64,000 bases of DNA, from assembly GCA_965237415.1 (NCBI GenBank), contig CBDEFM010000002.1:3360001-3424000 (forward strand), written 5' to 3'. The translations under genes were made by a program, and so were the position numbers. Shown one piece after another: positions 7,283 to 55,339 of the stretch. Within the stretch, counting starts at the first letter, position 1. Each line of letters begins with the position of its first letter. Source of the stretch: Alphaproteobacteria bacterium (GTDB lineage Bacteria > Pseudomonadota > Alphaproteobacteria > UBA828). The notes under the pieces were generated by a model. The model was not told where the DNA came from, ran no database searches, and was given only the letters and a program-made list of their open reading frames with translations.

Positions 7283-7845
7283 TGCGGCGCGACGATCAAG
7301 ATGAGACTCGCACGACAATCAGGGTGAGACGGGAGGCGGCGGCCTGGAACGGAGGGAGGGCGTAGCCCGACCGGAGTTTCAGGCCGCCGCCTTGCGAAGA
7401 TTTCGCCCCGGGCCTCCTGGCGTCGGTGGCCGGTCGGGCAACACTTGGGCTTTCCCGAGTCGAAGGAGAGCGCAGGGGTGCCCGGTCGCCACATCACCGA
7501 TCGCCAGAGGAGGCTTTTCATGATCCTGAAGAAGACCCACACAATCGACGTCGCGGCCGCGAAGGCGGGCTTCAGCCGCGCCACGGGATATCGGCTCGCC
7601 GAGGATCCGTCCCTCCTTTCGGGGAAGGCGGCACCACGGGGCCGGCGCCGACCGGACCCTCTGGTCGATATCTTCGAGACCGAGGTGGTGCCGATCCTGG
7701 AGAACAGTCCGGGCATCCGCCCGGTCGGCGTGTTCGAGGCGCTGATGCAGCGGCACCCGAAACTGGACCCCGGCGTCCGGCGCACCCTGGAGCGGCGGAT
7801 CCGCGCCTGGCGCGCCGAGCACGGCCCCGAGCAGGAGGTGGCAAG
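7283..7845 (+). mobile_element. istA: IS21-family left end plus 5' fragment of istA
   Basis: TG-initiated end TGCGGCGCGACGATCAAGATGAGAC with internal repeat; GTG at 7478 PGRHITDRQRRLFM...AAAKAG...GRRRPDPL...RTLERRIRAWR; truncated. Confidence 0.85.
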
Positions 7846-8466
7846 GTAACCCTTGCATGGTGCTGGTCTCACCAAAGACGAGACTTTATCGAGTGCGCCG
7901 CCGGCCAGGTGGGGTTGACGCACTGGTGCCAGCGCTGGATCGAGCGGATCGCGTCGATCTACCGTCTGAACGAGGCGAGGCTGGCTCATTACCACCCTGG
8001 GATCGAGCCCCGGACACCGGCGTTCCACGCGGCACAGGGCGCGCTGAAGGAGGCGCTCGCCGGCCTGTTCGCGGAGGCCGAACAGGAGTTGGCCGGCCTG
8101 CCCGACCGGGCGCGCGAGGGCAAGGCGCTGCGCTCGCTGGTGAACCATCGCGAGGGGCTGAGCGTCTTCGTCGACCGCCCGCAGGTGCCGCTGGATAACA
8201 ATCTCGCCGAAAGGATGCTCAGAGGGCCCGCGATCGGAAGACGGATGTCGTTCGGCTCCGACAGCGAGGACGGCGCCAGGTTCACGGCGATGATGTACTC
8301 GACGATCGGCACCCTCGCCTTGAACGGCATCGACGTCCTGCGCTGGCTGGAGGCGTGGCTGGAAACATGCGCGAAGAACGGTCGCCGGCCACCGGACGAC
8401 CTGTCGCCGTGGCTGCCATGGTCGATGAGCGAGGAGCGCAGGGGCAGCTTCACTGCGCCGGCATGA
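7846..8466 (+). pseudogene. IS66 transposase (TnpC) C-terminal fragment
   Basis: CWSHQRRDF, PLDNNLAERMLRGPAIGRR, WLPW motifs. Confidence 0.85.
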
Positions 8467-9344
8467 CCGGCACGGTCGAGTGCCGCTATTACGGCCGCGA
8501 CTTCACGGCGCAAGAAATGGCGCTGCTGCGCGCGCTGATCGCCGGGCCGGCGCCGTTGAACCGCCATACGCTGTCGAAGGAGTTCTGCCGGCGCATCGAC
8601 TGGCTCAAGCCCGACGGCGGGCTCAAGGACATGATGGCCAGGGTCACCATGCTGGCCATGCACAGGGACGGCCTGATCGCCCTGCCGGCACCGCAGGGAC
8701 GGCAGAACCGGCCCGGGCCGATCGTCTTCGGGCCGGACACCGAAGCGCCGCTGTTCACGGCGCCGTCCACCCTCGATGACGTCCGCCCGCTCGACCTGCG
8801 GACCGTCGTGCGCGGCACCCGGGAGGGAAAGCTCTGGAACGAGTTCGTCGCCCGCTACCACTATCTCGGATACAAGACCCTGGTCGGCGCCCAGATGCGC
8901 TACGCCGTTCATGACCGAAACGGCTGGCCGCTCGCCATGCTCGGCTTCAGCACCGCCGCGTGGAAGCTCGCCCCACGCGACACCTTCATCGGATGGACAC
9001 GGCAACTGCGCGAGAAAAACCTCCCCCTCGTGGTCGACAACCCGAGGTTCCTGATCCTGCCCTGGATCAAGATCCCCAACCTCGGCTCGCACATCCTCGC
9101 CCTAGTCCGCCGGCGCCTGCCCGACGACTGGACCGAGCGCTACAGCACCGCGCCCGTGCTCGTCGAGACCTTCGTCGAGACCCCGCGCTACACCGGCGCC
9201 GTCTACAAGGCATCGGGCTGGATCCATGTCGGCGCCACCAAGGGGCGCGGCCGATACGATCGGGACAAGCTCTACGACAAGCCCAGAAAGGACATCTGGC
9301 TCCGGCCCCTGCGAAAAGACTGGAAACACACCCTCAATCGCTAA
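8463..9344 (+). CDS. DUF4338-family (DruA-like) protein carried inside an IS66-type element
   Basis: WNEFVARYHYLGY..LVGAQMRY, AAWKLAPRD.FIGW, RFLILPWIKIPNLGSHIL, ETFVE..RYTGAVYKASGW; ATGA overlap with tnpC. Confidence 0.8.
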   Translation: MTGTVECRYYGRDFTAQEMALLRALIAGPAPLNRHTLSKEFCRRIDWLKPDGGLKDMMARVTMLAMHRDGLIALPAPQGRQNRPGPIVFGPDTEAPLFTAPSTLDDVRPLDLRTVVRGTREGKLWNEFVARYHYLGYKTLVGAQMRYAVHDRNGWPLAMLGFSTAAWKLAPRDTFIGWTRQLREKNLPLVVDNPRFLILPWIKIPNLGSHILALVRRRLPDDWTERYSTAPVLVETFVETPRYTGAVYKASGWIHVGATKGRGRYDRDKLYDKPRKDIWLRPLRKDWKHTLNR

Positions 9345-52231: not shown

Positions 52232-52471
52232 AACTGCGCATGTCCGATGACGTCGGGCAGGTGGGCCATGTCGATCAGCGAGGAGTGTCGTCTTGATGCC
52301 TGGCATCGGCGGCTGTTGTCAAGCGCGCCTTGTTGACCCCCCGCAATCATGCAAGATCAACGGGTTACCGCGCCGATCGGCACCGAACCCGTGCGCCGGT
52401 CGACACACTACTGCTTGGACCACTCCCGGAACCATCCTACAGTTCCGCCGAGGATCACTGCGGGTACGACC

Positions 52472-52708
52472 ATGTCAGACATAGCCACCCTATCATCCAA
52501 GTATCAAATCTCGATCCCCAAGAGAGTCCGCGAATCTCGCAACTGGAAACCCGGCCAGAAATTCGCGTTCATTCCCGAAGGATCGGGCGTCCTGCTCATA
52601 CCGGTTCCCAAAATCGAAGACCTCCGCGGCATAGCCAAAGGCGCCACAATCACCAACTACCGTGATCGCAAGGGGAATTATATAGCTGACTATGCGCTGG
52701 CCATCTAG
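52472..52708 (+). CDS. AbrB/MazE/SpoVT-family antitoxin-like protein, no cognate toxin downstream
   Basis: ATLSSKYQISIPKRVRE...WKPGQKFAF. Confidence 0.85.
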   Translation: MSDIATLSSKYQISIPKRVRESRNWKPGQKFAFIPEGSGVLLIPVPKIEDLRGIAKGATITNYRDRKGNYIADYALAI

Positions 52709-53222: not shown

Positions 53223-53314
53223 TATCGCCGAATCCCGCGAACCGGTCAAGTGTGCCCTCCGCAGATGTCGCCAGCACATGATGTGTCCGGTTTGGTCTCT
53301 CCGTGGGGAGGGAC

Positions 53315-55205
53315 TGCGGCGCGACGATCAAGATGAGACTCCGTATTGCCTCATTCTTGGATGTTCCCGAGCTTCGAGGTGCTTGCCTCACGTCGATGTT
53401 CCCCAAGGTCACGGCTTCGCTTCACTTGTCACGGCTGTGTCCCCAGGCGTGGTGCTGGAGTTCTGGCAGCGTCGGCAGCTGTGGGTAACCGGCTTGCCGC
53501 AGCGACCTCCATGAGTCTGGCGGCGGCGAGCCGGTTATCCACAGCGGTGGCCAAGGCAAGATCGGCCTTGTCGGCTGGTGCCGGTACCACGGTGTCGGAT
53601 TGGCTCGCTCCAAACACCAGGTCGTGGGCTTGCTCCTGGCGCCAGACCTGCACGCGGCGTTGCAGCGTACGCAGAAGATTGTCGGGATAACGGTCGGGAT
53701 GCTTTGCCTGTAGTTGTTCGAGCAGTTGACGGCTCGTTCGCCACGGCTCGGCTTCGAACCATTCCCGCAACTGCTCGGTGACGTCAGCCAGGGGATCGGG
53801 CCTGCGGCGGCCCCGTTTCGGCTTTGCAGCGGGCCGCGCCGTCGGCCGCACATCACCATCCTTCCATGCCGTTCGCAGCCCGGCGAGAAACTCGTCGATC
53901 GGCGGCACACCGGCCGGCGCCGATTGAACCGCCACGGGCCGGTCGGCAAGATCGACCAGACGCTGTTGCGCCCGTCTCATATCCCTCAACAGGCGGATCG
54001 GATCCAGGGTCGCGAACGGCGCGCTCACTTCGTCGCGAACGCTTTGCGGTGTGCGCTGATCCGCGAGCAGGCGTTGAAAGGGCGTTGCCGGAGGATGGTA
54101 GCGTTTACACACGTGGGCGCCGTCGCGCGTCTTGCTGGCGAGCTTGAATGAGGGCTGGAAGAAATTCACGAACAATCTCACTGTGGCGTAAAGCTGCGAC
54201 AGTGCAGCCACGGCCTCCGGGCCCTCCAGGCGGCGATAGCCCACGATGCGGCGAACGATCGCGCCGTTCTTCTGCTCGACAAAGGCCTGATCGTTCTTGC
54301 GCCAGGGGCGGCAACGCGTGAACTCGATGCCGGCGTCGCGGCAATAGTCCCGCACCGTTTCGTTCATGAACACGCTGTCATTGTCGGTGTCGAACCCGAG
54401 CAGGTCGAACGGCAGGAGCCTGCGGACGGCCGTCAAGACCGCGCTCACGAGCGTGCGCTCGCGGAACAGCAAGGGAGCGCACTCCGTCCATCCCGTGGCG
54501 ATATCGGTGAGTACCAGCGTCTGGACAAAGCTCCCGCGCGTCACCGGGCCGCTGTGAGCCACCAGATCGGCCTCGGCGAACCCTGGCGGCGGATCCTGCC
54601 AGTCAGCATAGGTGCGCACCGGAATACTCCGCCGCACCGATGACGATGCGAGCGAAGATCTTCGGCGCCGCCCGCCGGCCTGCTCTCGTATGCTGCGAAG
54701 TGACCGGTCGATCGTCGCCGCACTCATGGTCAGCAAGCGGCATCGGACATCGTCGGCGAGCTCAAGATGACCATGCCGTTCCATGGCTTCGACGAGAGTG
54801 GGAAGCAGCGGCTTCAGGCGCTTCCCGCAAATGCGGTCCGACGCTTCCCACAACACAACCAGTGCCTCGCGCACCGCATCGTCGTAAAGCCGCCGGCCAG
54901 CTCGCAAGGCTGCCGCTGGGCGCGACGACGAGCCGCCTCGCAGCAATCGCATCACGTGCTTCCGGTGATAGCCCGTCACCGCCACGAATTCATCCAGAAT
55001 GCGCGTCTTCTCCTCGCGTCCGCTCTCGCCATACCGCCGTGACAGCGCTGCCACAAGTTCATCCCGTGTCGCCATGCTCACCCTCCTCATACCCAAAGCC
55101 CCCGATCCATTCCCCTCGGGAGCATTTCAGATGAGGCAACGAGTCGCTCAAAAGGAGCAAATCAGGCGAGGCAATGCGGGCTCTCATCCAGATCGTCGCG
55201 CTATA
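53315..55205 (-). mobile_element. nested element: IS21-type outer ends enclosing an IS with its own inner IRs
   Basis: left 27 bp identical to 7283-7309; right end CTCTCATCCAGATCGTCGCGCTATA is its imperfect inverse; flanks AGGGAC/CGGGAC; inner IRs about 53337-53371 and 55115-55145. Confidence 0.75.
53429..55090 (-). CDS. DDE (rve-type) transposase, ISNCY-like, with C-terminal IstA-like HTH
   Basis: ILDEFVAVTGYHRKH N-terminus; EADLVAH, DTDND, DQAFVEQKN catalytic region; GRRRPDPL...RTLQRRV..WR C-terminal domain. Confidence 0.85.
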   Translation of the reverse strand: MRRVSMATRDELVAALSRRYGESGREEKTRILDEFVAVTGYHRKHVMRLLRGGSSSRPAAALRAGRRLYDDAVREALVVLWEASDRICGKRLKPLLPTLVEAMERHGHLELADDVRCRLLTMSAATIDRSLRSIREQAGGRRRRSSLASSSVRRSIPVRTYADWQDPPPGFAEADLVAHSGPVTRGSFVQTLVLTDIATGWTECAPLLFRERTLVSAVLTAVRRLLPFDLLGFDTDNDSVFMNETVRDYCRDAGIEFTRCRPWRKNDQAFVEQKNGAIVRRIVGYRRLEGPEAVAALSQLYATVRLFVNFFQPSFKLASKTRDGAHVCKRYHPPATPFQRLLADQRTPQSVRDEVSAPFATLDPIRLLRDMRRAQQRLVDLADRPVAVQSAPAGVPPIDEFLAGLRTAWKDGDVRPTARPAAKPKRGRRRPDPLADVTEQLREWFEAEPWRTSRQLLEQLQAKHPDRYPDNLLRTLQRRVQVWRQEQAHDLVFGASQSDTVVPAPADKADLALATAVDNRLAAARLMEVAAASRLPTAADAARTPAPRLGTQP

Positions 55206-55339
55206 CGGGACCGCGATGAGCCGGACGACGTTGCTACAGGAACGCAGGATGCAGACGTTTCAGAATGTGCTGGGGCACTGGCAGGCACGACGCCTGTGTT
55301 AACGGCGGAGGAATAATGCTCCACGCGGAGCGACCGGAC

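Follow-up and report, generated by a model that had tools for sequence, protein, structure and literature searches.

The window analysed here, a 64-kb stretch of the genome G000 (two contigs, C1 and C2), carries at 53315-55205 an insertion sequence (IS) that seems to prey on another mobile element. We think it likely that this unit is an active-looking IS of a large, uncharacterised family labelled ISNCY, specialised on the ends of one IS21 subgroup, and that its own tips were captured from such ends. That the family homes on the junction between repeat 1 and repeat 2 of IS21 ends is supported by relatives, in which the inner part of the unit alone interrupts IS21 ends at that point.

The listing of open reading frames (ORFs) shows an intact IS of 1891 bp with a single long ORF. 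No second gene was found among the ORFs within these 1891 bp, and a tblastn search with an IstB query gave zero matches in all three copies of the unit in G000. The first-pass annotation, which had read the unit as a DDE transposase that is not IstA and has no istB, is thereby borne out, with one ORF of 548 aa. It had also pointed to the ends, and here too it was correct: the outermost 27 bp at the gene's 3' side (53315-53341) are identical at 27 out of 27 positions to the tip of an IS21 resident in the window (7283-7309), and the imperfect inverse copy is present at the other end, as 55179-55205, with 3 mismatches in a 21-nt tip core. Allowing up to 3 mismatches, the window contains this core three times, with an expectation of 0.00 in shuffled sequence, and the terminal inverted repeat is continuous over 34 nt (85%). 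Further inwards, the motif TTGCCTCR-N6-10-TGYTCC is present in two copies per end; its 4 matches in 64 kb all lie in the ends of the unit, when 0.01 are expected. These shuffle expectations rule out a chance similarity of the tips and inner motifs. Each end consists of one IS21-type repeat followed by two family-specific motifs unrelated to IS21 repeats. The second, inner pair of inverted repeats described in the first-pass annotation does exist, but the left first copy had been paired with the right second copy, and both are contiguous with the outer repeats. Hence, what had been described as outer and inner repeats together form a single compound end, in which they adjoin.

Both tips can be matched to IS21 elements of the same genome. 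The IS21 at 7283 is a 565-bp stump, severed by an IS66 transposase fragment (7852-8463), and its istA fragment is recognised by the NCBIfam IS21 model (E 2.9e-11). The right outer 27 bp correspond to the right end of the resident IS21, with 27-28 nt at 100%, and such right ends adjoin istB at C1:15981, C2:67513 and C2:3076911. Both tip identities end exactly at IS21 repeat boundaries, that is L1|L2 on the left and R1|R2 on the right, and intact IS21 ends show L1 and L2. No intact istA of the matching type was found in G000, which holds four fragments only, and a complete cognate IS21 with both flanks, from which its duplication length could be read, was not recovered. The three copies of the unit in G000 share 99.8% DNA identity, encode proteins identical at 548/548 positions and differ at their tips only. 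Copy A, the one in the window, combines a tip of the left type (gene's 3' side) with one of the right type (5' side). Copy B (C2:925732-927622) has left-type tips at both ends and no target duplication. Copy C (C1:651314-653204) has a chimeric tip, TATA of the right type joined to a left-type tip, a left-type tip at its other end and the duplication AAGCG.

Relatives of the unit carry the evidence for homing. Of 582 confirmed genome loci we examined the best 80, and both inner boundaries could be placed at 53 of them; ends were classified by a script with a crude motif test that misclassified some of them (e.g. L015 and L018), so the resulting counts are approximate. A cognate istA or istB adjoins the element at 12 of the 80 loci, the istA identity being 52-71%. 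First, 5-bp direct repeats (GAACC at L024, GAATC at L070 and CCGCT at L057) flank an inner unit that stands alone; taking it out restores a normal IS21 end, and the insertion lies exactly after nt 27, between IS21 repeats 1 and 2. At L007 the inner unit, again alone and with a 5-bp duplication, occupies a look-alike site beside an efflux gene. With L007 included, inner-only insertions with 5-bp duplications are found at 4 of the 53 loci, compared to a chance of about 1/1024 per locus. Second, at approximately 8 of the 12 IS21-adjoining loci the IS21 is truncated at the inner boundary or at most ~50 bp from it, and the truncation points vary within istA or istB, as adjacent deletions would leave. 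Third, the 3' end of the gene points towards the IS21 tip in 10 of 11 cases that could be interpreted by eye. Fourth, scanning metagenomes in one orientation for the second repeat, 8 nt and the inner 5' end yielded junctions in 35 contigs, which fall into 27 sequence clusters and have 13 different pentamers, and 22 of the 35 contigs have an IS21 leader signature.

One inner lineage (L155, L156 and L162) occupies three different IS21 contexts. The three configurations are also interspersed on the transposase tree, a quick tree from which 11 rows with stops or short matches were left out: the IS21-associated label requires 9 changes for 9 rows, so that homing is not restricted to a single clade. 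The structures that interrupt IS21 could also be thought to stem from slippage or homologous recombination of outer segments with IS21 repeats; we rejected this, on paper, because neither would produce exact 5-bp duplications. Target-specific insertion is thus found in relatives, at three loci, one look-alike site and 35 metagenome junctions, and not in the window copy. The earlier proposal of homing on IS21 ends therefore holds for the family, to which the 12 of 80 IS21-adjoining loci also testify, but not for the copy from which it was drawn, which lies in another IS.

The transposase consists of an N-terminal region, a core that is probably of the integrase type and a C-terminal module; for the core, the Pfam rve score of 31.3 bits falls just under the 32.6 cut-off, no other Pfam domain was seen, and PF00665 is annotated in most relatives (precomputed). 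Residues D170, D231 and E267 are invariant in a 12-sequence family alignment and, judged from their spacing, probably form the DDE triad. By searching PDB sequences with the family profile we obtained retroviral integrase cores, weakly (best E 2e-3). An NCBIfam scan at E<=0.1 returned IS21, IS481 and IS3 models only, and the core is weakly IS481-like, scoring better against IS481 than against IS21. The IS21 model NF033546 gave 41.8 bits for a cut-off of 160 (E 9.3e-11), and its positions 35-105 align to residues 417-485 only, that is about 70 residues at the C-terminus. This match confirms the earlier remark that the C-terminus resembles the N-terminal region of IstA, as do a tblastn alignment to the istA fragment at 7478-7846 (40.6% identity over 64 aa) and the profile comparison that had been suggested as a check: hhalign of 12 family members against 11 IstA N-termini gave a probability of 96.6% (E 6.8e-10, 66 columns) and paired residues 417-483 with IstA 50-116. 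We also modelled the domain with AlphaFold (38 sequences, pLDDT 78). Its top match among 48,161 chains was the IstA cleaved-donor complex 8b4h_A, residues 53-108, with a Z of 6.2 and a root-mean-square deviation of 2.6 Å over 56 aligned residues.

As judged from these alignments and the model, residues 417-483 are an IstA-type DNA-binding module, homologous to the linker and the second helix-turn-helix (HTH-2) of IstA. HTH-1 is absent, and the DNA-binding module stands at the C-terminus. In IS21 elements, this part of IstA recognises CS1 and the AT tract, the tip-proximal half of each terminal repeat. According to the available sections of PMC10122671, HTH-2 comprises IstA residues 55-104 and binds the CS1 half of each terminal repeat, HTH-1 reads CS2, the linker binds the minor groove, and the solved complex uses R1 and R2, with the DNA sharply curved at the R1-R2 junction. 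The motif RGRRRPDP...LRTLQRR..WR is invariant in the 12-sequence alignment, which makes the domain a family trait and rules out its recent capture in G000; the first-pass description of a captured or borrowed IstA domain has to be given up in this respect. Another way to account for the IS21-type tips and for the IS21-model match of the protein would be a degenerate or rearranged IS21-family member that lost istB and whose DNA-binding domain moved to the C-terminus. We hold such an origin to be hardly credible: the model match is restricted to those ~70 residues and stays far below the cut-off, the core prefers IS481, HTH-1 and istB are absent, each end has one IS21-type repeat, and relatives of the core bear quite different C-terminal domains or none.

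Most relatives have compound ends, in which an outer segment of about 27 bp (T[G/A]nn GCGCGACAATCnnGnTGAGAnn) precedes CG(C/T)ATTGCCTC, and the inner boundary of the 3'-side end in the window (53342) recurs in them. Across 43 distinct outer segments, conservation is seen in the TG tip and in GCGnCAATC (1.2-2.0 bits) and is poor in the CS2 half (0.1-0.7 bits). A conserved CS1 side with a weak CS2 half fits a protein that has an HTH-2 homologue and lacks HTH-1. Depending on the relative, a given side of the gene may bear an outer segment of the left or of the right type. A CS1-like motif is present on both sides at 31 of the 53 loci, and 13 of these 31 two-tipped loci have direct repeats of at least 6 bp just outside their TG/TA tips; an outer segment exists at the gene's 3' side only at 17 loci and at its 5' side only at 3. 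Whole two-tipped units multiply, with 6-bp duplications outside the tips. L050 and L051 are identical units with different duplications in G001, which has three copies, L016 and L020 are 99.9% identical through both tips, and in G004 units have multiplied at different sites, the only cognate istA there being truncated. G001, G002 and G005 hold two-tipped units, and searching them with an IstA of 501 aa brought up no cognate IstA. Since units multiply in genomes without a detected matching IstA, the capped units most likely move by their own transposase. The mobilisation by IstAB put forward in the first-pass annotation is unlikely here, because G000 keeps only fragments of the matching istA and units occur where IstA was not detected. 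The annotation's alternative, in which the element has in its outer repeats another set of ends of its own, is right in part, since many whole units are flanked, beyond the outer tips, by 6-bp duplications.

Such movement would also be expected of an ordinary IS with long compound inverted repeats of its own, whose tips and domain share an old ancestry with IS21, evolved together as a matching pair and serve end recognition only, the neighbouring IS21 copies then merely reflecting IS-rich regions. Consistent with this, alpha-, beta- and gamma-proteobacterial relatives alike have outer motifs at their two ends, and these motifs diverge in step with the transposase clade; many whole units have 6-bp duplications, whole units occur also where cognate IstA is undetected, and the window copy behaves in this way. 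We nevertheless find the ordinary-IS explanation rather unlikely, as it leaves unexplained the 27/27 identity to both resident IS21 ends that stops at the repeat boundary, the inner-only insertions with 5-bp duplications at nt 27, the 35 metagenome junctions, the 17:3 asymmetry of outer segments and the different tips on otherwise identical copies.

A further possibility is that the inner element inserted into a pre-existing mini element derived from IS21, made of a left and a right tip, and that the composite was moved by IstA/IstB in trans. That the tips are exact IS21 tips would agree with it. So would one empty 50-bp element (G000, C2:3636354-3636403), in which an IS21 left tip (25-26 nt) abuts a right tip (24-25 nt); it is flanked by the 6-bp duplication GGCGGG, and 8 bp further downstream an IstA-like ORF of a different IS21 type begins. 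The search for an empty IS21 mini element, which had been suggested earlier, was successful to this extent, but it turned up just this one in G000 and none in G001-G005 beyond element pairs. The 50-bp element could have arisen from IS21 by deletion, or be the footprint that an inner unit left on excision. Had the inner unit entered a tip-to-tip mini element and duplicated 5 bp of it, direct repeats would be expected at the inner junctions; the window copy lacks them, its junctions reading GACTC and GGCTC, and we rejected this candidate on these grounds and for want of further empty copies. Moreover, the solved IstA complex, as presented in the available sections of PMC10122671, uses R1 and R2, whereas the composite has the first repeat only. 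Intact cognate istA is absent in G000 and was undetected in G001, G002 and G005. Taking both sides together, we regard a composite moved by IstA/IstB as improbable.

The window copy itself interrupts an unrelated 1.4-kb IS, of which at least 9 uninterrupted paralogues exist in G000 (92-98% identity; an intact example is C2:55248-56665) and of which the window holds the first ~130 bp only. In intact paralogues the two flanks of the window copy are contiguous and GGGAC is present once; therefore, GGGAC is a true 5-bp target duplication, in agreement with the duplication proposed earlier, apart from an extra C at the right. The whole unit of 1891 bp, tips included, arrived with its own 5-bp duplication in a fragment of an unrelated IS, so that the first-pass placement of the element inside an IS21 or an IS21-derived mini element no longer stands.

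To reconcile homing in relatives with whole-unit insertion in the window, we propose the following course. The C-terminal IstA-like module would bind IS21 repeats and do the homing; as the relatives show, the inner unit of ~1.8 kb, bounded by CG(C/T)ATTGCCTC, lands between repeats 1 and 2 and duplicates 5 bp. IS21 sequence would later be deleted by rearrangements that start from the inner 5' end, and one that ended at the same junction in the other IS21 end would replace the IS21 body. What would remain is the inner unit capped by 27 bp of the IS21 left tip and 27 bp of the right tip; a targeted intramolecular event, from one IS21 end into the other, would yield the anatomy seen in the window. 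Capped units, with their TG/TA tips, would then transpose as a whole with 5-6-bp duplications, probably by their own transposase. Replacement of an IS21 body would predict precisely what the window copy shows, namely 27 bp each of left and right tip and, at the junctions, the pentamers GACTC and GGCTC that would result from insertion at the respective IS21 end.

Several points weigh against the specialisation on IS21 ends that we favour. Regarding the genomic evidence, the window copy is not in an IS21, and 0 of the 3 copies in G000 adjoin IS21 sequence. The tip combinations of the three copies (left/right, left/left, and chimeric TATA plus left with left) and the missing duplication of copy B are not explained. 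An annotated IS21 neighbour was present at 0 of 3 plasmid loci inspected, in records that do not list pseudogenes. The proposed path from an end insertion to a unit with two tips is a model, for which we found no intermediate occupying both IS21 ends. Regarding the enzyme, the inner ends finish in CG-3', which is unusual for its class, and two cleavage points per transposase are a proposal. The part of the C-terminal domain in target choice is likewise a proposal. In addition, the 8b4h_A match is middling, within 1 Z of homeodomains and TnsB, Foldseek with the C-terminal model found nothing in the PDB below E 0.7, and the PDB sequence search with the family profile did not reach IstA.

The family is large and patchily distributed. 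At least 7668 relatives of the transposase were found at E<=1e-3 among 8000 scored; aligned members are 64-82% identical to it, and one is named "ISNCY family transposase". The only NCBI label for the family is "ISNCY", and plasmid records annotate ISNCY or a DDE-type integrase. It is widespread in rhizobial symbiosis plasmids and soil bacteria, and 339 plasmid records, mostly rhizobial, carry it; a class-wide genome search found it in 3 of 301 sampled genomes, hence its patchiness. With the first 400 residues as query, 14,497 cluster representatives were retrieved at E<=1e-3. The IstA-like C-terminal domain is present in 54 of the best 150 of these core relatives. Among the others (38-50% identity), about 20 end right after the core, at about 390-420 aa, and further ones bear C-terminal Arm-DNA-bind_3, the arm-binding domain of P4-type integrases (P0182 and P0205), an AbiEi_4 winged helix (P0175 and P0216) or a whole tyrosine recombinase (P0150 and P0249). 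P0162 has an HTH_38-type helix followed by IstA-like sequence, that is a fuller IstA-like HTH pair. This variety suggests that the C-terminal region may be a swappable targeting module. We tentatively extend this to the whole superfamily of more than 14,000 clusters, which might use exchangeable modules copied from the recombinases of other elements for homing. The branch described here would then be an IS21 parasite, one that would land at the bent repeat junction, destroy IS21 by adjacent deletion and leave with the tips of its victim; like the extension itself, we hold this to be possible rather than probable. The C-terminal domain might also dock onto IstA that is already bound, through an HTH-2/HTH-2 contact as in the IstA tetramer.

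Features of the unit, its target and the resident IS21 in the window
Feature	Position	Strand	Remarks
Resident IS21 stump	7283..7848	+	tip, L1 and spacer 7283-7309; L2 7310-7330; first 123 istA codons 7478-7846
Target IS, left part (first ~45 bp)	53273..53314	+	resumes at 55207-55297
Left copy of the target duplication, GGGAC	53310..53314	.	GGGAC once in target paralogues
Outer left segment, 27 bp, gene's 3' side	53315..53341	+	equals resident IS21 left tip, L1 and 2-bp spacer
Inner end, gene's 3' side, begins CGTATTGCCTCA	53342..53405	+	family motif twice: 53346-53367, 53383-53402
Transposase gene, 548 aa, ATG after AGGAGG	53429..55075	-	alternative in-frame starts 55090, 55096
Hairpin, 26-nt arms, 88% complementary, in 3' tail of transposase ORF	53478..53545	.	
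C-terminal domain, residues 417-483, homologue of IstA minor-groove linker and HTH-2	53627..53827	-	NCBIfam, hhalign, structure match
Probable integrase-type (rve) catalytic core, residues 163-259	54299..54589	-	Pfam rve 31.3 bits
Inner end, gene's 5' side, read inwards begins CGCATTGCCTCG	55115..55178	-	family motif twice: 55154-55174, 55119-55139
Outer right segment, 27 bp, gene's 5' side	55179..55205	-	equals resident IS21 right tip, R1 and 2-bp spacer
Extra C, then right copy of the target duplication, GGGAC	55206..55211	.	flank comparison with target paralogues

A few further features were seen in and around these elements. The hairpin in the transposase ORF has copies of ~80% similarity at three other sites of G000, and the tail that bears it brings the protein to 548 aa, compared to ~500-510 aa in most relatives; an Rfam scan of the element gave zero matches. 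About 600 bp upstream of the element, an ORF on the forward strand (52349-52705) has a MazE/AbrB-type antitoxin domain (Pfam E 2.4e-07), and just past the IS66 fragment another forward ORF (8355-9341) has a DruA domain of the Druantia defence system (Pfam E 6.4e-40). Among IS21 elements, an istB of G000 contains a 603-codon open frame that looks reverse-transcriptase-like by eye (C1:16648-18456). A group II intron (Rfam RF02001 and RF00029) lies in the IS21 leader at L070 (286-2164). At L114 (2107-3363) and also at L118 and L121, three copies in G016, an RVT_1 ORF stands directly upstream of L2, where L1 would be expected. Finally, at L071 (3716-5188) istA starts inside the transposase ORF of the family; there, the IS21 seems to have inserted into the element or truncated it, the reverse of the usual arrangement.

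Compared with known systems, the unit resembles the IS21 family in its terminal 27 bp, which equal the resident IS21 tips, in TG/TA starts, in duplications of 5-6 bp and in a C-terminal domain homologous to the IstA linker and HTH-2. It differs in having a core that is not of the IstA type, in lacking IstB and HTH-1, and in placing the DNA-binding module at the C-terminus; also, a single IS21-type repeat per end is succeeded by family-specific repeats unrelated to it, while IS21 ends have 2-3 direct IstA-binding repeats (L1-L3 and R1-R2). The nearest described behaviour, going by the available sections of PMC10132070, is that of the ISAjo2 group of IS1202, the "dif-site hunters". Like the unit, these have a single large DDE transposase filed under ISNCY by ISfinder and NCBI, additional transposase-binding sites within their ends (putative in the unit) and no helper proteins, and their insertions, which duplicate 5 bp, keep a constant distance and orientation to a defined site (PMC10132070). 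Unlike them, the family described here targets the terminal repeats of another IS and not an Xer site, its candidate targeting module is a homologue of a domain of the victim's transposase, and it carries the victim's tips. Membership of IS1202 is not shown, because no ISNCY model is among the NCBIfam matches at E<=0.1. Hallmarks of IS1202 given in the same sections are 5'-TGT...ACA-3' ends and a Q seventh after the catalytic E (PMC10132070); the tips of the unit are TGCG and TATA, in a comparison made by description. The position of IS1202 and ISNCY relative to IS481 is treated in the part of PMC10045372 available to us. TnsB of Tn7 and MuA of Mu likewise combine an rve-type core with several transposase-binding repeats per end (available sections of PMC10122671 and PMC10132070), both of them putative in the unit, but here partners of the TnsA/C/D type are absent and targeting would reside in the transposase itself.

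Insertion into another transposon's ends has a precedent of a different kind. IS4321 and IS5075, of the IS1111/IS110 group, insert into the 38-bp terminal repeats of Tn21-family transposons in one orientation and at a fixed position. Homing on a fixed position in another transposon's terminal repeat, in one orientation, is common to them and to the present family; in contrast to it, they are of the DEDD class and are not known to make a target duplication or to capture the ends of the host transposon. Full-text searches outside subscription-only texts, ISfinder notes and supplements brought up no account of an IS aimed at IS21 ends, or of such a domain architecture.

To our knowledge, few insertion sequences choose their target, and it is mostly unclear how a transposase on its own locates a site, also in the dif-hunting IS1202 group. 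The present case offers a concrete mechanism that can be tested, namely a transposase with a copied DNA-reading module that would land where the sites of that module adjoin. If this is true, the family would represent a conflict between mobile elements in which one IS inactivates and cannibalises another. It would also provide a route to new chimeric ISs with borrowed ends, and a modular principle that could be used for retargeting DDE transposases.

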